Notes under the pieces: generated by a model
Told to the model about the DNA's origin: nothing
Seen by the model: only the letters and a program-made list of their open reading frames with translations
The model's database searches: none
Part shown: piece after piece, positions 1 through 51,862 of the stretch
How positions within the stretch are numbered: the stretch's first letter is position 1
How the letters are laid out: each line of letters opens with the position of its first letter
Assembly: GCA_041666745.1 (NCBI GenBank)
Contig: JBAYGI010000001.1
Coordinates: forward strand, 6,447 to 70,446
From: Candidatus Magasanikiibacteriota bacterium
Lineage (GTDB): Bacteria > Patescibacteriota > Patescibacteriia > Magasanikbacterales > GWA2-37-8
Reading direction: 5' to 3'
DNA length: 64,000 nucleotides
Program-made: the position numbers and the translations under genes

Positions 1-379
1 TTGGCCAAAATAATAGTTCATCAGCATCAATAAAAAATAGTGCTCCATCCTCAAGCTCCATTCCTTCTTTTTCAGTATTACTTTTGTACTTACACAAAAC
101 ACCAAACTCCTTTGATGTGCCCATGACAACAACTTTTTTGCCTTCTTGAATAAATCCCTTATTTTCTGAACCATGGCCAGTTTTACCTCGCGCTAGGTCC
201 ACCCATGGCAGACTTGTTTCATAGCCAAAATTTGCAGCCCCACCAAGACTAGGAATAGTAAACTCACTTCCTTTTGTTAACTCTTTTTGTTCTCTACTTT
301 TTTTAAATGAGTTAAAGTCAATAATGTTATCTTGGCCTTCAATTGGCTCTTTTGGGCCGCCTACAAATTTTTCTACCAT
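1..379 (-). CDS. hypothetical protein, partial (N-terminus at 379, C-terminus beyond window start)
   Basis: Reverse-strand ATG at 377-379 opens a stop-free frame that runs off the window edge (MVEKFVGGPKEPIEGQDNIIDFNSF...). It is absent from the ORF track because it is truncated. No recognisable domain. Confidence 0.4.
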   Translation of the reverse strand, partial: MVEKFVGGPKEPIEGQDNIIDFNSFKKSREQKELTKGSEFTIPSLGGAANFGYETSLPWVDLARGKTGHGSENKGFIQEGKKVVVMGTSKEFGVLCKYKSNTEKEGMELEDGALFFIDADELLFWP

Positions 380-575
380 ATGTTTGATTTAGTTAAATTT
401 TATTTATCACTTTGTATTATGTGCGATTAAAAAATTAATAATAAAGGAGAATTTTGTAGCTATTTCGCCGAATGCGCGGCGGTTATCCAACGTCGTCCCG
501 TAGCAAACCCGCAGGTTTGCGTAGGGGTGATGTTGGATAACCGCTGTTATGCGATGTCCGGAGCGAAGCGACGGA

Positions 576-603
576 TTTCGCATAATGTATCGGCGTATGC
601 GAA
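576..603. other. dif-like 28-bp site (candidate Xer recombination site)
   Basis: TTTCGCATAAT-GTATCG-GCGTATGCGAA has an 8-bp inverted arm TTCGCATA/TATGCGAA around a central spacer. It shares the 12-mer CGCATAATGTAT with E. coli dif (GGTGCGCATAATGTATATTATGTTAAAT). It lies about 0.9 kb from the only tyrosine recombinase in the window. Confidence 0.3.
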
Positions 604-746
604 GTTGCCGATTTTTCTCCTTAATCGTATCAGATATAGAGAAAATCGGCAATTTGGTCGAGCATTTGGCGTCAGCCAAGCGCGAACCACATACGCCGTG
701 TTATGCGTTGTAGCGAAAAGCAACGACTGCCTGCGAAGGCGGCCGT

Positions 747-780
747 TATATTTCTGGTAATTTATTGTTGCGCGCGTGGT
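747..780. repeat. left inverted repeat bracketing the 781-1263 ORF
   Basis: Reverse complement of 747-780 is gaccacgcgcgcaacaataaattaccagaaatat. The partner 1308-1337 is gaccacgcaataataaattaccagaaatat: an 8-mer plus a 19-mer match with a short indel. Confidence 0.7.
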
Positions 781-1263
781 CTATTTTTGTTCTTGTTTAA
801 GAAGTATGTTTGTAACTTGTTCATGCCAGTCTGGCCCCATCACGGCACTTTCCAGCTGTTCCCTTTCTCTGTTTGCCATACTGAAGCTGAACGAAACCGA
901 CTCTACACTCAACATGACATCTAAAGCAGAAAGTTCAGTATTTCCGAATTCACGCAGAACACTGATGCCTTCCTTCTGAACACGTTGATTTAGAGATGCG
1001 ATTGCGTCTACTCCCCAGTCTGATTTTATGGCATCAGGCCATGTAGCGATTTTTTCTCGATTTTTTGGTTGATTAAATCCTGCTGAAGCCATAATGAGTG
1101 CTTTCTCTAACAGCGGTTTATACTGCCCATTTTTTTCAGCCATGTCAAGCAATTGATCAAGAGTATAGCGAGTGTTTTCTAAAGCTTCATGTCTCTCATT
1201 TTCAGATTTTCTCCTTGCCGTCTCTTCTGGAGAAGGCGGTTGATATCGTGGATAGTCTCCCAT
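781..1263 (-). CDS. hypothetical protein (160 aa) inside an IR-bracketed segment
   Basis: Complete ORF, no recognisable motif. GC is slightly above the genome background. A TATAAAT-like element lies between the ORF start and the right IR on the reverse strand. Confidence 0.5.
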   Translation of the reverse strand: MGDYPRYQPPSPEETARRKSENERHEALENTRYTLDQLLDMAEKNGQYKPLLEKALIMASAGFNQPKNREKIATWPDAIKSDWGVDAIASLNQRVQKEGISVLREFGNTELSALDVMLSVESVSFSFSMANREREQLESAVMGPDWHEQVTNILLKQEQK

Positions 1264-1307
1264 ATTTTTGTTAGTTAAAAATTATTTATAATTATTTTTG
1301 TTACGTC

Positions 1308-1337
1308 GACCACGCAATAATAAATTACCAGAAATAT
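1308..1337. repeat. right inverted repeat bracketing the 781-1263 ORF
   Basis: Partner of 747-780, described there. Confidence 0.7.
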
Positions 1338-1460
1338 CAAAAATTTTCAAGAAATTTTTGGCTTTTCGCTATTACGCATAACTACTGATAAACCAACCTG
1401 TTGTTTTTTTGGCTAAAAAATGATAAAATAATTTGGTAAATTTTAATTCATAAAGGGGGT

Positions 1461-2303
1461 ATGAACCAAAATATTTATTTTCCAAGTCAGGATCCGATTT
1501 TGAAATTAAGGCAAGAAATGAAATTGCGGAATTTTAGCCAAAAAACAGTAAAAAGTTACATCTATTATATCTCTCATTGCCTAAAATGGTCAAGGAAAAG
1601 CCCGCGAGATATTAACACGGCGGATATTCGTCAATATTTGGAACATTTGGCGGATACCGGTGTGTCGGCTTCTACATTGAATTCTGCCTATAGCGCTTTG
1701 AAATTCTATTTTGGCGCTATTTTGCATCGTAATTTTTTCGTAAATATTCCGCGCGCTAAAAAAGACAAACAATTGCCAACGATTTTGTCAAAAGGTGAAG
1801 TAGTCAAAATGATAGAATTGACGAAAAATATTAAACATAATTGTGTATTGAAATTGCTGTATGGAACTGGGTTGCGAGTGGGTGAATTGGTGCGATTAAA
1901 GATGAAAGAGATAGATTTTGCGCGCGGGCTGATAAATGTTCGTAATGGTAAGGGAGCAAAAGACAGGTGTACGGTTTTGCCAAAAAGTTTGGTGGAAATT
2001 TTGGAAAATCAGGCGAGAATTAAAAAAACTGACGCTTTTTTATTTACCAATGGCCGTGGTGGGCGACTGACCGAGGCGACAATGCAAAAAGTCGTGGCTC
2101 AGGCGGCACAACGGGCGGGGATTAGTAAAAATGTTTCACCGCATACATTGCGCCATAGCTTTGCCACCCATCTACTTGAAAATGGGACGGATATAAGGTA
2201 TATTCAAGAGTTGTTGGGGCATGCGAAGTTGGCGACAACGCAGATTTATACGCATGTGGCCAATAGTAATTTACAGGGGATTAAAAGTCCGTTGGACGTA
2301 TGA
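1461..2303 (+). CDS. xerC: tyrosine site-specific recombinase (XerC/XerD-like integrase)
   Basis: 280 aa. Arg box GLRVGELVRL. Box II HTLRHSFATHLLENGTDIRYIQELLGHAKLATTQIYTHV carries the H-x-x-R ... H ... Y catalytic pattern. An extended -10 TGATAAAAT sits at 1421-1429. The TGA stop overlaps the next gene's ATG (ATGA). Confidence 0.85.
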   Translation: MNQNIYFPSQDPILKLRQEMKLRNFSQKTVKSYIYYISHCLKWSRKSPRDINTADIRQYLEHLADTGVSASTLNSAYSALKFYFGAILHRNFFVNIPRAKKDKQLPTILSKGEVVKMIELTKNIKHNCVLKLLYGTGLRVGELVRLKMKEIDFARGLINVRNGKGAKDRCTVLPKSLVEILENQARIKKTDAFLFTNGRGGRLTEATMQKVVAQAAQRAGISKNVSPHTLRHSFATHLLENGTDIRYIQELLGHAKLATTQIYTHVANSNLQGIKSPLDV

Positions 2304-3619
2304 ATACAAAAATTGCTCAACAATTAAAAAATTTGCCTGATGCGCCTGGGGTGTATCTGTTTTTTAATTCCAAAAAGGAGCTGATATATGTCGGCAAGGC
2401 GTCGTCTTTGAAAAACCGCGTGAGAGGATATTTTAAGGAGCTGGATTCCCGCCTGCGCGGGAATGACAAGAGTGGATTGTCACGTCCGATAGAGGAAATG
2501 ATTCACGAAGTGATGAACTTCAAAACGGAAGAAACCGATTCGGCTTTGGAGGCGGCGATTTTGGAAGGGAAGTATATTAAGGAAAATAGGCCGAAATATA
2601 ATATTGATTGGCGGGATGATAAGAGTTGGAATTATATTGTTATTACAAAGGATAAGTTTCCACGAGTTTTGACTATTCGTCAACATGAGTTAAAAAATGG
2701 AGGAGGGATTCCTCCGCTCGCTACGCTCGGTCGGAATGACAAACGACTTCGCGGGAATGACAAATATAAGTATGTGTTTGGGCCGTATCCGGGGTTGAAC
2801 ACCAAAGAAGCCTTGCGTTTATTGCGTAAAATTTTTCTTTTTTCTACTTGTGAACCAAATGCCAAGCGTCCGTGTTTTTCTTATCAGATCGGTCAATGTT
2901 TGGGAGTGTGTACGGGAGAAATTTCACCCAAAGATTATTCGGCAAAAGTAATTCGACCACTTTGTTTATTTTTGGGTGGAAAGAAAAAAATATTAATGAA
3001 GAAAACAGAAAAAGAAATGAACATGGCCGCTAAATTGGAAAATTTTGAAGAGGCGAGCAGATTGAGAAACCAACTTCGTCATTTGCAAAAAATTCAAGAC
3101 GTGGCTTTATTGAATGATAGTTTTTTGAGAGATATTACGAAAAGGAATTCCTTGGCCGGTCGGAATGACATGAGGATCGAGGGTTATGATATCTCCAATC
3201 TAGGTAGTAGCAATAAAGTGGGTAGTATGGTAGTATTTGATGAGGTTGGGCCGGTAAAAAATCAATATCGTAAATTCAAAATCAAGACAGTGGTGGGGCA
3301 GAGTGATGTGGATTGTTTGGCGGAAGTGTTGGAGCGTCGGATAAAACATGCCGAATGGATATTGCCAAATATTTTTTTAATTGACGGTGGTTTGCCTCAA
3401 GTAAATAAAACTAAATCGGTTTTGCGAAGGGCTGGGATAAATACACCGATAGTCGGCATTGCCAAAGGGGCAAAGCGTAAACGCAATGATTTTTTTGTAG
3501 TAACTGAATCTTTGGAGATAAAAAACTGGATAAAAGAAAATAAAGAGCTGTTGATCAGAGTCCGCGACGAAGCGCATCGATTTGCTATCAAGTTTAATCG
3601 AGTACAGAGAAAAATATGA
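2300..3619 (+). CDS. uvrC: excinuclease ABC subunit C-like (UvrC lacking the C-terminal HhH2 domain)
   Basis: GIY-YIG N-terminus (GVYLFFNSKKELIYVGKASSLKNRVRGYF). Cys-rich region CFSYQIGQCLGVCTG. UVR motif EEASRLRNQLRHLQ. RNaseH-like endonuclease domain (RIEGYDISNLG...IAKGAKRKRND...RDEAHRFAI). Ends with TGA. Hosts three in-frame palindromic-repeat insertions. Confidence 0.8.
   Translation: MNTKIAQQLKNLPDAPGVYLFFNSKKELIYVGKASSLKNRVRGYFKELDSRLRGNDKSGLSRPIEEMIHEVMNFKTEETDSALEAAILEGKYIKENRPKYNIDWRDDKSWNYIVITKDKFPRVLTIRQHELKNGGGIPPLATLGRNDKRLRGNDKYKYVFGPYPGLNTKEALRLLRKIFLFSTCEPNAKRPCFSYQIGQCLGVCTGEISPKDYSAKVIRPLCLFLGGKKKILMKKTEKEMNMAAKLENFEEASRLRNQLRHLQKIQDVALLNDSFLRDITKRNSLAGRNDMRIEGYDISNLGSSNKVGSMVVFDEVGPVKNQYRKFKIKTVVGQSDVDCLAEVLERRIKHAEWILPNIFLIDGGLPQVNKTKSVLRRAGINTPIVGIAKGAKRKRNDFFVVTESLEIKNWIKENKELLIRVRDEAHRFAIKFNRVQRKI
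2443..2469. repeat. TGTCATTCC/GGAATC palindromic element, in-frame in uvrC
   Basis: ggattcccgcctgcgcgggaatgacaa encodes DSRLRGNDK. Confidence 0.7.
2705..2763. repeat. palindromic element, 1.5 tandem copies, in-frame in uvrC
   Basis: gggattcctccgctcgctacgctcggtcggaatgaca followed by cgacttcgcgggaatgacaa encodes GIPPLATLGRNDKRLRGNDK. Its reverse complement closely matches the intergenic copy at 7445-7505. Confidence 0.7.
3144..3170. repeat. palindromic element, in-frame in uvrC
   Basis: ggaattccttggccggtcggaatgaca encodes LAGRNDM. Confidence 0.6.
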
Positions 3620-3666
3620 AATTAACCCAAAAGATGGGTAAATAAGCGCTAAATAGGGGGGTAGGC

Positions 3667-4026
3667 TTGACATTTTTTCATTTTTTGTTTATTATATTGC
3701 TGTTTATGTTAGCCAAAAATAATCGAGGCGAATCTTGGTTGGAAGCATTAAAATTCATTGGTCATTGTCCGATTTGCAATCAGCGTTATGAAGAAAATCA
3801 GGCCAAGCTTTTTGCCAAACATGATTCAGCCAATTTGATTCATATTACTTGTGGCAAATGCGCCGGTAATTTTATTGCCATGATAGTGATGATGGGGCAA
3901 GGATTGAGTTCGGTTGGTATGGTGACAGATCTGACGTTTGAGGATGCTAAACAACTTTATAAAACAGCGCCACTGACAGTAGATGAAGTTATCAGTGGTT
4001 ATCAATTTTTTCAAAAAAATTATTAA
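3667..4026 (+). CDS. hypothetical small protein with N-terminal TM segment and CxxC...CxxC zinc-ribbon
   Basis: TTG start at 3667 follows a GGGGGG RBS; the alternative ATG is at 3706. CPICNQ ... CGKCAG motif. Confidence 0.45.
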   Translation: MTFFHFLFIILLFMLAKNNRGESWLEALKFIGHCPICNQRYEENQAKLFAKHDSANLIHITCGKCAGNFIAMIVMMGQGLSSVGMVTDLTFEDAKQLYKTAPLTVDEVISGYQFFQKNY

Positions 4027-4048
4027 TAATAAATTAAATTTGTAAGAT

Positions 4049-4759
4049 ATGACATATTTGTTGCAAGCGGTGACCCGCACTATCAAAGGAGCAGACTCTC
4101 GTGAACAGGGGAAATTACCGGCCGTGACTTACGGAGCGGGAAATGAAACTATTTCCTTGGATTTGAATTATGCTGATTTCCTCAAACTCTACAAACAAGC
4201 TGGTGATTCCAGTTTGATTGATTTGGAAATTGACGGAAAAAATGTTGGAAAAGTATTGGTGCACGAAGTACAATATAATCCGGTAAAAGATACTCCAACT
4301 CATGTGGATTTGCGTCGTATTGATATGAACAAAGTAATGCAAGCTCCAGTGGTGTTGCATTTCATTGGCGAAGCTCCAGCAGTAAAATCTATGGGTGGTA
4401 CTTTGGTACAAAACATCTCTCAGGTTACTGTAGAATGTTTGCCAAAAGATTTGGTATCCGCTCTTGAAATTGATTTATCTATTTTGAAGTCTTTTGAAGA
4501 AGTGGTCAAAGTGAAAGATTTGGTTTTACCAGCCGGTTTGAAAATCGTGGCTCCTCAAGGCGATGTGTTGGTGACCAAAGTTGTCGCCTCAATGACTGAA
4601 GAAGAAATCAAAGCCATGGAAGAAGCTGGCAAAAATATGGATGTCAGTAAGATCGAATCTGCTGCCAAGAAGAAAGAAGAAGAGGCAGTGGAGGGTGAAG
4701 CTCCAGCCGCTGGCGCTGAAAAGAAGGTTGAAGAAAAGAAACCAGCTGAAAAGAAATAA
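4049..4759 (+). CDS. rplY: 50S ribosomal protein L25 (Ctc form) with Lys/Glu-rich C-terminal tail
   Basis: LPAVTYGAGNETISLDLNYADF...VLVHEVQYNPVKDTPTHVDLRRI matches the L25/Ctc beta-barrel. Confidence 0.85.
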   Translation: MTYLLQAVTRTIKGADSREQGKLPAVTYGAGNETISLDLNYADFLKLYKQAGDSSLIDLEIDGKNVGKVLVHEVQYNPVKDTPTHVDLRRIDMNKVMQAPVVLHFIGEAPAVKSMGGTLVQNISQVTVECLPKDLVSALEIDLSILKSFEEVVKVKDLVLPAGLKIVAPQGDVLVTKVVASMTEEEIKAMEEAGKNMDVSKIESAAKKKEEEAVEGEAPAAGAEKKVEEKKPAEKK

Positions 4760-7444: not shown

Positions 7445-7505
7445 TGTCATCCCGACCGAGTTTCGCAACGAGCGGAGGGATCCCTCGGTTTCACTCGGGA
7501 TGACA
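7445..7505. repeat. extended palindromic element (same family) between convergent genes
   Basis: tgtcatcccgaccgag...gagggatccctc...ctcgggatgaca. Matches the reverse complement of 2705-2741. Likely also acts as a bidirectional terminator. Confidence 0.7.
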
Positions 7506-7513
7506 GCGCGGTA

Positions 7514-8371
7514 TTAGGTGGATATTTTTAGTATTCGATCTAGACCGGCGAGGTCTTTTTTTATTTCTGTTGTACTTTGTGGTAAATAATGTTTGGCCAG
7601 TTGTTTTATTTGCTCACTTTGATTTGGGTCGATTTCCAAAAAAATCAAGAGTTTTTTGTTGGAAAACAGGCTGGAGATTTGTTTTAGGAGTTGGCGGTAT
7701 AGGGCTAGTCCATTTTCTTTGGCCACCAATGCAATCCTCGGTTCTTTTTGGATTGAAGGCTCTGTTTTGATCTGTGCAACTGTCAGATAAGGGAGGTTGG
7801 CGGTGATTATTATTTGGTCAAATGATGAATGATCGAGATTAAGTATTTTTGTTAGTAAATTACTTTTTAAAAGTTCCAAATTTTTATTGTCATTCCCGTG
7901 AAAACGGGAATCCAGAATCTTTATAATATTTTTTTTAGCTATTTTTAATGCTTGATTGGAAATATCCAAAGCAATAGTCCGGCTAATATTTTTGCTGTTT
8001 TTTAAAATGGAAATTGGAATACAACCACTGCCGGTGCCGACATCAATCAGCAATATTTTTTTTGACGAATCTTTTATTTCATTTAATACATTTTCTACCA
8101 TCAATTCGGTTTCCGGACGGGGGATCAAAACGTGTTTGTTTACCAAAAATTCTAAACCAAAAAATTCTTTTTGTCCGGTGATTGAGGCTACCGAATATCC
8201 TCGATTGAATAAAAATAAATAATAAATAAAACGCCAATATTGTGCCAAATCCAGTTGGTATTCCGGATGGGAGAGTACAAAAACCCGATCTTTGTGAATG
8301 GCTTGTGCCAACAATAATTCGGCTTCAATCGTCGAGTTTTTGAGAAGATTTTTTATGGTAAAATTAAACAT
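7514..8371 (-). CDS. prmC: release-factor glutamine N5-methyltransferase PrmC/HemK
   Basis: SAM motif [20 protein letters not shown]-like motif NLPY. Overlaps prfA, the classic operon arrangement. Contains an in-frame palindromic repeat encoding [10 protein letters not shown] at 7887-7913. Confidence 0.8.
7887..7913. repeat. palindromic element, in-frame in prmC
   Basis: ttgtcattcccgtgaaaacgggaatcc. Confidence 0.7.
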
Positions 8372-9425
8372 TGGAAGATTCTTTGTAGTCTTCTTCGCGC
8401 AAGGCCAAAATTATCGGCTCCAACTCGCCGTCTAAAATAGTGTTGATGTTATTCCAGTTTTGGTGAATGCGATGATCGGTAATACGATCTTGAGGAAAAT
8501 TGTAAGTACGGATTTTTTCACTACGGTCGCCACTGCCAATTTGTGATTTGCGTTTTTCAGACATTTCTTTCTCGTGTTTTTCTTTTTCTATTTCATAAAG
8601 ACGTGAGCGCAAAACTTTCATCGCTTTATCTTTGTTGGCCATCTGCGAACGCTCATCTTGGCATTGTACGATCAATCCGGTGGGAACGTGGATGATACGC
8701 ACGGCTGAATAGGTGGTGTTTACACTTTGACCACCATGACCACCGGCACAAAAAGTATCGATGCGTAAATCTTTTGGTTCGATTTTAAATTCCACTTCGT
8801 CAATTTCCGGCATGACAGCGACGGTGGTAGTGGAGGTATGGATGCGTCCGGCTTTTTCAGTATCCGGTACGCGTTGAACACGATGTACACCCATTTCGTA
8901 TTTTAAATCTTTATATACATTTTTTCCTTTGATTGAAAAAATAATTTCTTTGTAACCGCCGATTTCAATTCGGTTGGCATCGATGACATCTACTTTCCAA
9001 TTTTTTCTTTCGGCATAGCGTGAATACATGCGAAATAATTCCGCCGCAAATAATGCCGATTCATCACCACCAACGCCGGCACGGATTTCCACAATGACAT
9101 CTTTTTTGTCCATTGGGTCACGGGGGCGGGTGAGTTCGGATAACTCATTTTCCAGAGCGGATATTTTGGTTTTTAATTCCTCGATTTCGGTTTGGGTAAG
9201 TTGTTTCATTTCTTCGTCAGTTTCGGTTTTCAACATTTCTTGTGATTGAATCAAACTATTTTCACATTTTTCCAATTCGAAAATCTGATCTTTGATTGTT
9301 TGTAACTCGTTGTATTCTTGTGACACTTCTTTTAATTTTTTGGAATCATTAAGAACGGCCTGATCTTGCAAATCCGCTTCCAGTTTTAAGTATTTATTTT
9401 TTATATCAATGTATTTTTGAATCAT
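8364..9425 (-). CDS. prfA: peptide chain release factor 1
   Basis: GGQ motif ([14 protein letters not shown]). RF1-type domain [19 protein letters not shown], with PDT at the PxT position. Confidence 0.9.
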
Positions 9426-10850: not shown

Positions 10851-10876
10851 TTGTCATTCCCCTGAAAAGGGGAATC
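10851..10876. repeat. palindromic element (intergenic rpsB-tsf)
   Basis: ttgtcattcccctgaaaaggggaatc. Confidence 0.7.
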
Positions 10877-51304: not shown

Positions 51305-51320
51305 TTAACCTATAAACTTT

Positions 51321-51722
51321 ATGTCAGAAGAAAAAAATGTAGTTGTTCCTGAGAAGTTTAAAGCTATCGTGGAACAAGTAGAAAAAATGTCAGTATTGGA
51401 TTTGGCCGAATTGGTCAAAATCTTGGAAGAAAAATTCGGTGTTTCCGCTTCCGCTCCAGCTATGATGATGGCTGCCGCTCCAGCTGCTACTGGCGCTCCA
51501 GTAGAAGAAAAAACTGAATTCAATGTTGAGTTAACCGATTTTGGTGCCAACAAGATCAACGTGATCAAGGCAGTAAAAGAAGTAACCGGTTTGGGATTGG
51601 CTGATGCCAAAGCTTTGGTAGACGGCGCTCCAAAAATGATCAAAGAAGGTTTGAAGAAGGATGAAGCGGAGGCTATGAAGAAGAAGATCGAAGAAGCGGG
51701 TGGAAAAGTTACTTTAAAATAA
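51321..51722 (+). CDS. rplL: 50S ribosomal protein L7/L12
   Basis: Ala-rich hinge and C-terminal [44 protein letters not shown]. Confidence 0.95.
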
Positions 51723-51745
51723 TACTTTTTCATTAAATTCATCAA

Positions 51746-51862
51746 ACAAAAAACACGACCAGATAAATACCTTTTCGCTTTTTTTGCCCGCGAGGGCAAA
51801 AGGATGAGCCTCGGCTCATAACCCGCTCAAAGGTAATTATCTGGTCGTGTTTTTGTTTTCTA
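51746..51862. terminator. complex multi-hairpin bidirectional terminator
   Basis: Outer stem acaaaaaacacgaccagataa/ttatctggtcgtgtttttgt enclosing hairpins tttgccc/gggcaaa and atgagcc/ggctcat. T-runs on both strands. Confidence 0.6.

Follow-up and report, generated by a model that had tools for sequence, protein, structure and literature searches.

The inverted repeat adjoining the tyrosine recombinase gene of this Candidatus Magasanikiibacteriota bacterium most probably corresponds to the ends of a gene cassette that belongs to a small array, and the locus is best explained as a Xer-type, integron-like cassette platform. Comparison of the sequences shows a recombinase gene transcribed divergently from a dif-like core site (attI), with cassettes inserted at the G|TT right border of its centre. 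The cassettes follow a single plan: TTnnnn is followed by a 5' arm, the cargo and a 3' arm, then by nnnnAAC and last by an imperfect hairpin (R''-L''...L'-R') whose final base is G or A. The 5' end of each cassette is complementary to the sequence immediately preceding the hairpin of that cassette. No prior description of this arrangement was found in the literature searched.

The repeat beside the recombinase is real, and it is longer than the original prediction stated. In addition to the inner arms at 748-772 and 1313-1337 (25 nt, 96% complementary), a repeat search of the window (the whole 64-kb stretch of DNA analysed) revealed an outer pair, absent from that prediction, at 700-721 and 1361-1382 (22 nt, 91% complementary). 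The whole repeat is bipartite: approximately 80 nt (700-780) pair with approximately 70 nt (1312-1382) in two blocks, and each arm is interrupted by a non-matching insert of approximately 25 nt. Both blocks are unique within the window, where a 19-mer of the repeat occurs twice against 0.10 expected occurrences and a 22-mer twice against 0.00. The 5' arm opens with the R' box GTTATGCG and contains the right copy originally predicted; the 3' arm ends with the R'' box GCATAAC (700-706) and contains the left copy together with a GC-rich hairpin (727-742). The 160-aa and 280-aa ORFs were as previously described, and the TATAAAT-like element placed inside the segment was found, as TATAAAT, in the leader. 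The proposed 590-bp boundaries (747-1337), in contrast, are not those of the mobile unit, which is 796 bp long, with one end at G|TT (1382|1381) and the other at the final base (586) of its own attC-like hairpin. The features of the locus are listed in the table.

Table. Features of the cassette locus; positions refer to the window unless a contig is named (window coordinate = 11264 minus L001 coordinate)
Feature	Position	Strand	Evidence
Cassette 3, partial at the window edge, 150-aa ORF (window 1-379, partial)	1..472	-	L001 10792-11471
Cassette 2, ORF-less, 113 bp	473..585	-	Repeat pair, hairpin scan, junction HMM
Cassette 1, 796 bp: 5' arm, 160-aa ORF, 3' arm, 121-nt attC-like hairpin	586..1381	-	BLAST homology block
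attC-like site of cassette 1	586..706	-	Hairpin scans; junction HMM matches 575-606 and 683-711
3' terminal inverted-repeat arm of cassette 1	700..780	-	Ends with R'' box
Passenger ORF, 160 aa, all-alpha	781..1263	-	ORF list; AlphaFold2 model
5' terminal inverted-repeat arm of cassette 1	1312..1382	-	Opens with R' box
attI, dif-like 11-6-11 core site GGTTGGTTTAT-CAGTAG-TTATGCGTAAT	1371..1398	-	Comparison of 12 loci
Extended -10-like element TGATAAAAT, candidate recombinase promoter	1421..1429	+	Position conserved
Tyrosine recombinase, 280 aa, XerA/IntI-like, without IntI additional domain	1461..2303	+	Pfam, NCBIfam, PDB comparison
Fourth cassette, 97 aa, outside the window on the same contig	L001 11472-11868		

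The attC-like site of cassette 1 carries the boxes R''(GCATAAC)-A-L''(CGGCGTATGTG)...L'(CGCATACGCCG)-ATAC-R', where R' consists of an A followed by TTATGC of the next cassette. Cassette 2 is composed of a 41-nt palindromic body (545-585) and a second attC-like hairpin (473-552), while the attC of cassette 3 lies beyond the window on the same contig. In this genome, the attC of cassettes 1, 2 and 4 ends in A instead of G, which is a point against the cassette-platform reading. Compared with expectation, the region 465-745 is strongly structured (z = -9.9, similar on both strands), and it has no Rfam match, even at E <= 1. A structured RNA gene was considered for this region and rejected, since two attC-like DNA hairpins and the palindromic mini-cassette explain the fold, much of which is the attC-like site of cassette 1. 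The 160-aa passenger gave no significant Pfam, NCBIfam or PADLOC match, and its homologues fall into five clusters, all metagenomic. The earlier view that it has no recognisable fold was only partly borne out: a confident fold is predicted (AlphaFold2, pLDDT 83), but comparison of this model with the PDB gave no fold match at E <= 0.001.

The array starts at attI and runs divergently from the recombinase gene, with the crossover placed between 1382 (G) and 1381 (TT) and with the right arm of attI formed by the first 11 nt of cassette 1. The left arm (AGTTnGnATAA) and the 6-bp centre are common to 12 Magasanikbacteria loci beside the recombinase, and the sequences begin to diverge at G|TT in 11 of them, the twelfth contig ending at the junction. 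The site is both integron-like, as an attI adjoining the recombinase with cassettes at G|TT, and Xer/dif-like, as 28 bp in which 11-bp arms enclose a 6-bp centre (at 1371-1398 and at the corresponding place in the 12 loci); its layout parallels that of E. coli dif, GGTGCGCATAA-TGTATA-TTATGTTAAAT, the 28-mer of which was confirmed. Three loci (L021, L023 and L029) were considered as 'empty' attI sites and rejected, as their shared flank proved to be a cassette leader family with its own repeat partner and attC. A metagenome scan with the attI left arm for other first cassettes returned one chance match inside an unrelated gene only, and no tRNA that might serve as an integration target was found near the locus.

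The recombinase gene, whose stop overlaps the start of uvrC, encodes a protein with the Pfam domains Phage_integrase and SAM_4, and the family alignment shows no variation at the catalytic-type residues R139, K164, H228, R231, H254 and Y263. The protein is closest to IntI and XerA and lacks the additional domain. In NCBIfam, its score for XerA_Arch (NF040815) was 249.6 bits, above the cut-off of 220, and that for the integron integrase (TIGR02249) was 250.6 bits, below the cut-off of 265 and with the match in two stretches. The best PDB match, VchIntIA (2a3v), also aligned in two stretches, skipping IntI4 residues 187-240, to which only approximately 11 residues of the recombinase correspond; the XerA structures 5hxy and 4a8e aligned over the full length, so that score and structure both place the protein in the XerA family. 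The alignment with IntI1 (33% identity) contains 47 gap positions at the additional domain, and the IntI-specific I2 helix region near patch III is missing. Integron integrases require the additional domain for attC recombination, and its absence here counts against the cassette-platform reading, as does the occurrence of the exact recombinase on the source contig and no other in the contig search. A junction HMM search found no comparable arrays associated with the DPANN relatives of the recombinase. The element at 1421-1429 probably drives the recombinase gene; an equivalent element (TGCTATAAT and similar) is located at the same position in the Magasanikbacteria loci, and a consensus promoter scan did not flag the one at 1421-1429.

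The same features might describe a housekeeping system, in which the recombinase is a chromosome-dimer resolvase of the XerA type, 1371-1398 is the chromosomal dif and the cassettes are IMEX-like hitch-hikers. The XerA_Arch cut-off is an equivalog cut-off, attI has the arm sequences as well as the geometry of dif, the cassettes encode no recombinase of their own, and the synteny of the recombinase gene with uvrC, a 106-aa ORF and L25 is kept in one relative (L025). This synteny is, however, missing in the other relatives, and one Roizmanbacteria assembly harbors two recombinase-plus-site modules (contigs L033 and L068). GC skew, which is positive throughout the window and has no clear-cut reversal along L001, an incomplete contig, gave no sign of a terminus at the locus and did not assign it to an origin. 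Moreover, known IMEX take the form of phages or plasmids and not of hairpin cassettes with a single ORF. We regard this explanation as unlikely; it partly overlaps with the cassette-platform reading.

Under the cassette-platform reading, the hairpins would represent attC sites, and our scans recovered R''-L''...L'-R' sites of variable sequence and conserved structure. Their geometry is rigid (nnnnAAC, 0-1 nt, 11-bp stem, loop, 11-bp stem, 3-4 nt, GTTnnnn), their length ranges from 53 to 184 nt, and nearly all are on the ORF strand. The asymmetry between R and L boxes is 3 nt in most sites, the R arm contains an invariant 2-nt mismatch, and a CACCCAAAT module is conserved in the loop. The L boxes comprise 20 different sequences, each of which pairs with its partner where the scan detected a site (9-15 bp, at most one mismatch); this complementarity is partly built in, because the hairpin scan required pairing, whereas the tests on R boxes and on inverted repeats do not depend on that scan. 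The variable bases of the R'' box match the 5' end of their own cassette at 3.59 of 4 positions (17 of 22 perfectly), compared with 1.86 of 4 for the next cassette and a random level of 1.97. Terminal inverted repeats specific to the cassette were present in all 29 curated cassettes, with a median score of 18 for cognate ends and of 5 for non-cognate ends (95th percentile, 11), and two compensatory double changes were observed between orthologous cassettes. The ssDNA hairpin at the circle junction is predicted to be more stable than the integrated state for 25 of 26 cassettes (median difference, -11.2 kcal/mol). For the class 1 cassette aadA1 in R100, the pairing of the ends extends over approximately 12 nt (10/12 first bases; score 8), a single hand-scored case that offers no firm contrast.

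It could also be argued that the arms function at the level of RNA or expression, either as a clamp between the 5' and 3' UTRs or as a promoter leader and a terminator, unrelated to recombination. The GC-rich hairpin of the 3' arm varies among orthologues yet remains a hairpin, the 5' arm belongs to a leader family common to unrelated cassettes, and the region folds very stably as RNA. However, the beginning of each arm coincides exactly with the R' or R'' box, the first arm bases covary with the recombination box, and the arms are kept in cassettes that have no ORF. In addition, Rfam gave no match, and the promoter scan yielded no more hits than shuffled sequence. A purely RNA-level role is thus quite improbable.

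As expected of mobile gene cassettes in the integron sense, the cassettes behave as discrete units found in different arrays. The homology of cassette 1 (L001 9882-10682) extends over 801 bp at 95.3% identity as a single collinear piece in eight contigs with different neighbours, and it stops exactly at both R' (G|TT) junctions (BLAST). ORF-less cassettes of 113-118 bp, similar to cassette 2, occur in two further contigs (L004 and L013); such cassettes recur at several array positions with unchanged boundaries and are repeated within arrays. The same architecture is also present in a Roizmanbacteria genome. The curated cassettes range from 113 to 2883 bp, and most contain one small ORF or none. 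Their cargo includes a glyoxalase, GmrSD_N, a type IIG restriction-modification-like gene, DUF5680 and many proteins without annotated function, and is typical of cassette arrays. A PDC-S27-like ATPase is located just beyond the last recognisable attC.

The original prediction of an invertible or mobile segment holds for mobility, in the form of a cassette moved by site-specific recombination within shifted boundaries and lying beside its likely recombinase, and is not supported for inversion, the segment being collinear in all contigs compared. An inverton, in which the recombinase flips the segment between the inverted copies and thereby switches the expression of an ORF or promoter, would account for an inverted pair adjoining a tyrosine recombinase gene and for the recombinase-type box, in inverted orientation, at the end of each arm; one cassette (L013, 582-1305) also has its ORF on the opposite strand. 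Nevertheless, none of the 10 other contigs with cassette 1 (eight full-length and two partial; assemblies, not reads) shows it inverted relative to its attC. The moving unit includes 114 bp outside the repeat, the sites flanking the body differ in their central regions (9 vs 6 nt), and the repeat flanks 29/29 cassettes, including ORF-less ones of approximately 40 nt in which inversion would change nothing. This makes an inverton very improbable, and a MITE or small IS moved by a transposase in trans, to which the terminal inverted repeats around a small segment might point, is the least credible of the explanations, as the repeats do not delimit the mobile segment common to the contigs, target-site duplications are absent, every insertion lies at the same G|TT of a recombinase core site, and the repeat is found nowhere else in the window. 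Both were rejected on this evidence.

The cassette-platform reading suggests a mechanism in which the repeat has a role. In the excised circular ssDNA, the terminal arms would extend the stem of the hairpin outward beyond the cleavage point, and the extended stem would supply a full duplex binding arm to a recombinase that has no additional domain of the IntI type. Probably a single strand, the bottom one, would be cut at AA|C and exchanged with attI or another attC, and replication would then resolve the junction. One-strand exchange followed by replicative resolution is used by integrons and by CTXphi/XerCD. It follows from such stem extension that the repeat would be the split outer stem of a cassette recombination hairpin and not a pair of inversion sites. 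From the geometry alone, namely the central regions of 6 vs 9 nt and a junction at one border, we infer a single-stranded substrate and the exchange of one strand; R''ext-6 nt-L'' on its own forms a duplex dif-like site with the right spacing, and recombination may instead follow a double-stranded pathway.

Of the known systems, integrons (IntI, attI and attC cassette arrays, in bacterial chromosomes and in archaea) share several features with the locus: a recombinase gene that points away from an array whose cassettes mostly hold a single ORF and lie on one strand, insertion at the G|TT of a site adjoining that gene, cassettes that end in an imperfect hairpin with R''-L''...L'-R' boxes and are common to different arrays, and an integron integrase as the best structural and sequence neighbour of the recombinase. 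The R' box resembles GTTRRRY (GTTAGGC, GTTAGAC and GTTAAGT are all present) and is composite, with its last six bases contributed by the next cassette. In contrast to integrons, the recombinase is without the additional domain, attI is a plain dif-like 11-6-11 site, a 3-nt spacer bulge in most sites and the invariant 2-nt mismatch of the R arm stand where integrons have the canonical extrahelical bases and the unpaired central spacer that set strand choice, the loop module is conserved, and every cassette has a specific terminal inverted repeat of 15-85 nt, the classical control being one cassette (aadA1, approximately 12 nt). The archaeal integron integrases possess the additional domain (Ghaly et al. 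2022), unlike the recombinase described here. Integron cassettes are promoterless and expressed from a platform promoter, Pc; the cassettes of the present arrays have leaders of 40-120 nt with AT-rich -10-like motifs, on which the consensus scan was uninformative.

A Xer-type enzyme without the IntI domain, together with a dif-like target, is also found in the Xer/dif system exploited by CTXphi and other IMEX. As with CTXphi, the incoming hairpin would imitate a core site in duplex form whose central region is imperfect, and the junction pattern fits single-strand exchange. However, the recombinase gene here adjoins the site, the cargo comprises small single ORFs in an array and not phage genomes, and each cassette retains its hairpin, which serves as an attC-like site. 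The cassettes resemble IMEX in being elements without their own recombinase at a dif-like site, but they are not phages, plasmids or genomic islands with replication or transfer functions. Acinetobacter pdif modules likewise form strings in which each module lies between inverted Xer-type core sites, and in the present array this applies to cassette bodies and hairpins alike, with L'-9 nt-R' upstream and R''-6 nt-L'' downstream of each body. Those modules reside on Acinetobacter plasmids with separate XerC and XerD, whereas the array described here lies on a CPR chromosome with one recombinase gene at the locus; every other module is a short hairpin, and the moving unit is delimited by directly oriented boxes (R' to R') and not by an inverted pair. 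Tyrosine-recombinase invertons, such as Fim-type switches and shufflons, share the inverted repeats near a recombinase gene, but the second orientation that defines them in a population was seen in none of the 10 other contigs, the unit exceeds the repeats, and ORF-less units carry repeats as well.

Integron integrases are thought to have arisen from Xer-like recombinases through the gain of one domain enabling recombination of hairpin DNA. An array served by a recombinase without that domain would make the question of integron origin testable, and raises the question of whether a Xer-type enzyme handles hairpin cassettes if the hairpin provides the full duplex arm. Tentatively, and with slightly less than even confidence, we propose that such an enzyme captures and excises cassettes in a true sense in members of the CPR (Magasanikbacteria and Roizmanbacteria) via folded ssDNA hairpins whose stems reach beyond the cleavage point into the cassette ends, either as a surviving intermediate between Xer/dif and integrons or as an independent invention of the integron principle, and that it may offer a route for defence and accessory genes. 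In a recent survey, 97% of contigs with integron-type recombinases had no attC recognised by IntegronFinder; arrays like this one may account for part of that gap, and their recombinase and site pairs are potential new tools for genetic engineering. Our analyses point to a gene-exchange platform in CPR bacteria, with genomes of approximately 1 Mb, whose cargo comprises defence-type genes (GmrSD_N and type IIG restriction-modification-like) and many small proteins of unknown fold.

The window forms part of a 222-kb metagenome contig whose sequence (L001) reaches 7 kb beyond the window start, and on which ORFs of 160, 150, 97 and 473 aa, and more, lie on a single strand, divergent from the gene for a Xer-type tyrosine recombinase. 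The 160-aa ORF (781-1263, minus strand), the 280-aa recombinase (1461-2303, plus strand) and the inverted repeat bracketing the ORF, all recognized in the original prediction, were confirmed. The repeat search resolved two blocks, an inner pair at 748-772 / 1313-1337 (25 nt, 96% complementary) and an outer pair, absent from that prediction, at 700-721 / 1361-1382 (22 nt, 91%); both are unique to this locus within the 64-kb window, where 0.10 and 0.00 matches are expected by chance. In the alignment the arms are bipartite, spanning approximately 700-780 and 1312-1382, with an unmatched insert of about 25 nt per arm.

Homologues of the 160-aa protein were found in metagenomes only; their genes belong to other arrays of small ORFs, likewise on a single strand, where the neighbours are not those seen here and include DUF5680, GmrSD_N, a type IIG restriction-modification-like gene, a tRNA-Thr_ED fragment and another, unrelated ORF of 160 aa. 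A BLAST comparison of the source contig with eight such contigs yielded a single collinear match of 801 bp (95.3% identity), exactly L001 9882-10682, or window 1382 down to 582 (window coordinate = 11264 minus L001 position). Its left limit is the G of GTTATGCG, preceded in the window by the recombinase-proximal site and in the other contigs by the hairpin of an ORF-less cassette, and its right limit is the final base of a 121-nt hairpin. Thus, the moving unit, hereafter cassette 1, comprises 796 bp (586-1381) and not the 590 bp bounded by the repeats, as had been proposed. The suggestion of an inverton was likewise abandoned, as no inverted copy occurs in ten other contigs (eight full-length), the unit boundaries lie beyond the repeats and the arms are also present in ORF-less cassettes; a MITE fails on unit boundaries and insertion specificity. 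The sequence 3' of the 160-aa ORF (465-745) is GC-rich and folds much more strongly than shuffled sequence (z = -9.9 and -9.5 on the two strands), and an Rfam search of it returned no family, even at E <= 1. An RNA gene at this position was rejected, the strong folding representing DNA-level palindromy.

Imperfect hairpins with a fixed layout were found between the ORFs throughout all of these arrays. The two strands of an 11-bp stem, L'' and L', enclose a variable loop; R'' (nnnnAAC) lies 0-1 nt before L'', and 3-4 nt separate L' from R' (GTTnnnn). The hairpins measure 53-184 nt, are on the same strand as the ORFs with few exceptions, and have the consensus ACATC-nnnn-AAC-A-GCGnrTATnCGGTT on the 5' side and AACTTCGCATAC-ACGCGAAC|GTT-nnnn-GAAAT on the 3' side. 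This R''-L''...L'-R' organisation is shared with integron attC sites, and one of the R' variants (GTTAGGC, GTTAGAC and GTTAAGT), GTTAGGC, is the canonical integron core. The L boxes comprise 20 distinct sequences, each pairing over 9-15 bp with its partner box, a single mismatch being permitted, wherever the scan detected a site. Matches to HMMs of both junctions were confined to 529-711 in the window, and the leader past L001 11868 has no repeat partner within the remaining 6 kb.

Coordinates of the array and associated features (window positions unless a contig is named; L001 is the source contig, the other L numbers are contigs or loci compared with it)
Feature	Position	Strand	Remark
dif-like site (attI)	1398-1371	-	GGTTGGTTTAT-CAGTAG-TTATGCGTAAT
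Array junction bases	L001 9882, 10678, 10791, 11471, 11868		
Cassette 1	1381-586	-	160-aa ORF
Cassette 2	585-473		113 bp, without ORF
Cassette 3	472 to past window start		150-aa ORF
Cassette 4	outside window		97-aa ORF
ORF-less mini-cassettes	L004 122-239, 1750-1864, 1864-1981, 2575-2693; L013 1-115, 1305-1418; window 473-585		
Loop module	~620-660		also attC-like sites in L004, L013, L029, L030, L033
Palindromic repeat copies in uvrC	2446-2469, 2728-2763, 3157-3170		
Palindromic repeat copies elsewhere	7887-7898, 10851-10862	-	

Several further features of the hairpins were observed. The last attC-like base, at the crossover, is A rather than G in approximately one third of the sites (L001 10678, 10791 and 11868; six in L030); this base belongs to the hairpin, as shown where the same cassette follows different hairpins. 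Most hairpin loops from two CPR classes carry in their 5' half a conserved module that appears to be unpaired (GGTTCCGCT-n-CGCTyCACCCAAAT) and of which the window has a weaker form (GACCAAAT); it may be an accessory binding site. In two loci a small ORF is seemingly enclosed between L'' and L', as cargo in the hairpin loop (L033 ~8110-8400 and L028 ~7470-8292, both minus strand). A 121-nt near-perfect palindrome at 51741-51861, 3' of the ORF 51305-51799 (minus strand), whose outer stem is 17 bp long and whose inner hairpins are GC-rich, is not related to the attC-like sites.

The attI site was compared across 12 Magasanikbacteria loci, found via the recombinase (55-62% identity), all of which carry AGTTnGnATAA, 6 bp and then TT... 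in the divergent upstream region. Both the left arm and the centre are conserved. In 11 of the 12 loci the sequence can be followed beyond the junction, and it differs between loci from G|TT onward, as different first cassettes are present; the contig of L026 stops at this junction. In one relative, L028, the first cassette is a glyoxalase/bleomycin-resistance cassette. In layout and arm sequences the window site parallels the E. coli dif, reported as the 28-mer GGTGCGCATAA-TGTATA-TTATGTTAAAT. An extended -10-like element, TGnTAnAAT (1421-1429), lies between attI and the recombinase start and is conserved across the Magasanikbacteria loci.

For 29 curated cassettes from seven loci, the 5' end was compared with the reverse complement of the stretch ending at the cassette's own R''. 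An arm match of 15-85 nt was present in every cassette (29/29), with a median score of 18 for cognate pairs against 5 for 800 non-cognate pairs (95th percentile, 11). Of the four variable R'' bases, 3.59 matched the 5' end of their own cassette (17/22 perfect), against 1.86 for the next cassette, the partner faced when integrated (random level, 1.97); this test is independent, as the hairpin scan made no selection for such matching. In addition, two compensatory double changes distinguish orthologous cassettes (R box, G/G to A/A; inner block, A/A to G/G), and a 2-nt mismatch, GAAAT versus GATGT, is invariant in all arms. The arms flank the hairpin in the excised circle and so lengthen its stem outward. 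Folding predictions with DNA energy parameters gave the circle junction greater stability than the junction of the integrated state for 25 of 26 unique cassettes (median difference, -11.2 kcal/mol); the circle junction of cassette 1 was predicted to form a single hairpin of ~280 nt (-84.6 kcal/mol). An RNA-level role may be a second function of the arms, but it leaves their co-variation with the recombination box unexplained. Mini-cassettes of 113-118 bp, repeated at multiple array positions, hold nothing apart from an attC-like site, a loop and a pair of short arms, and may represent either deletion products or selfish units of minimal size.

The recombinase carries the Pfam domains Phage_integrase and SAM_4; it passes the XerA_Arch equivalog (249.6, cut-off 220) and scores slightly below the cut-off of the integron-integrase model (250.6 versus 265), the match being split in two pieces. 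Among solved structures, its closest relative is the Vibrio integron integrase 2a3v (E = 1.7e-50), in an alignment that omits IntI4 residues 187-240, the integron-specific additional domain; XerA structures align end to end. Similarly, IntI1 of plasmid R100 shows 33% identity, with 47 gap positions at the place of this domain. Catalytic-type residues are kept among the relatives. Further away, at 42-49% identity, are XerA-like proteins from DPANN archaea, whose loci contained no comparable arrays. A Roizmanbacteria genome has the full architecture, with a dif-like site, attC-like sites and three cassettes bearing terminal repeats, and also a second recombinase-plus-site module on a different contig. 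That the recombinase is a housekeeping Xer acting at dif, with the cassettes as hitch-hikers, is a reading that overlaps the main one, of an integron-like cassette platform, and that we regard as rather unlikely; the presence of two modules in a single assembly speaks slightly against it, and GC skew gives no information on it.

In L030, the recombinase (3291-4211) has a 27-aa P/S/G-rich insert exactly at the additional-domain position, which looks like low-complexity sequence and not a homologue of the domain. The recombinase stop overlaps the start of uvrC (ATGA, 2300-2303). Within uvrC (2300-3619), a short palindromic repeat (TTCCCGCCTGCGCGGGAATGACAA / CGGTCGGAATGACA) occurs in in-frame copies encoding peptide inserts such as RLRGNDK, similar to the in-frame palindromic elements of Rickettsia, and residues 118-214 do not align to the L025 orthologue; the motif is no more frequent in the window than in shuffled sequence.

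Taken together, the cassettes are discrete units, running from R' to R', at a conserved dif-like site adjoining the recombinase gene, and the recombination box is whole only once both ends of one cassette come together. The junction would always fall on the right-hand edge of the central region. These regions are unlike in length and sequence (6 nt in attI, 9 nt on the L'-R' side of attC), which argues against a classical two-step duplex-duplex exchange. In cassette recombination a single strand (the bottom one, cut AA|C) is probably exchanged, with replication afterwards, which is the course taken in integrons and when XerCD integrates CTXphi; the absence of the IntI domain may be offset by the long arms, which would supply the full 11-bp duplex arm. 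A double-stranded pathway is possible, as R''-6 nt-L'' alone constitutes a well-spaced dif-like site.

In the limited collection of literature searched, neither integrons in CPR bacteria nor cassette arrays whose recombinase lacks the additional domain were described. The integrases of archaeal integrons possess this domain. A classification of tyrosine recombinases includes a "Cand" Xer subgroup in candidate phyla, and describes the insertion as "not fully conserved" within the integron-like subgroup. According to a 2026 survey, IntegronFinder recognises no attC site on 97% of the contigs that carry integron-type recombinases, and novel attC sites were proposed as one explanation.

Beyond the window start, after the last recognisable attC-like site, the 473-aa ATPase_2/DUF234 gene (L001 12075-13496) matches PDC-S27, a candidate anti-phage/defence family (E = 3.7e-49). 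Together with the defence-type cargo of other arrays, namely the GmrSD_N and type IIG restriction-modification-like genes, this indicates that the arrays gather defence genes.
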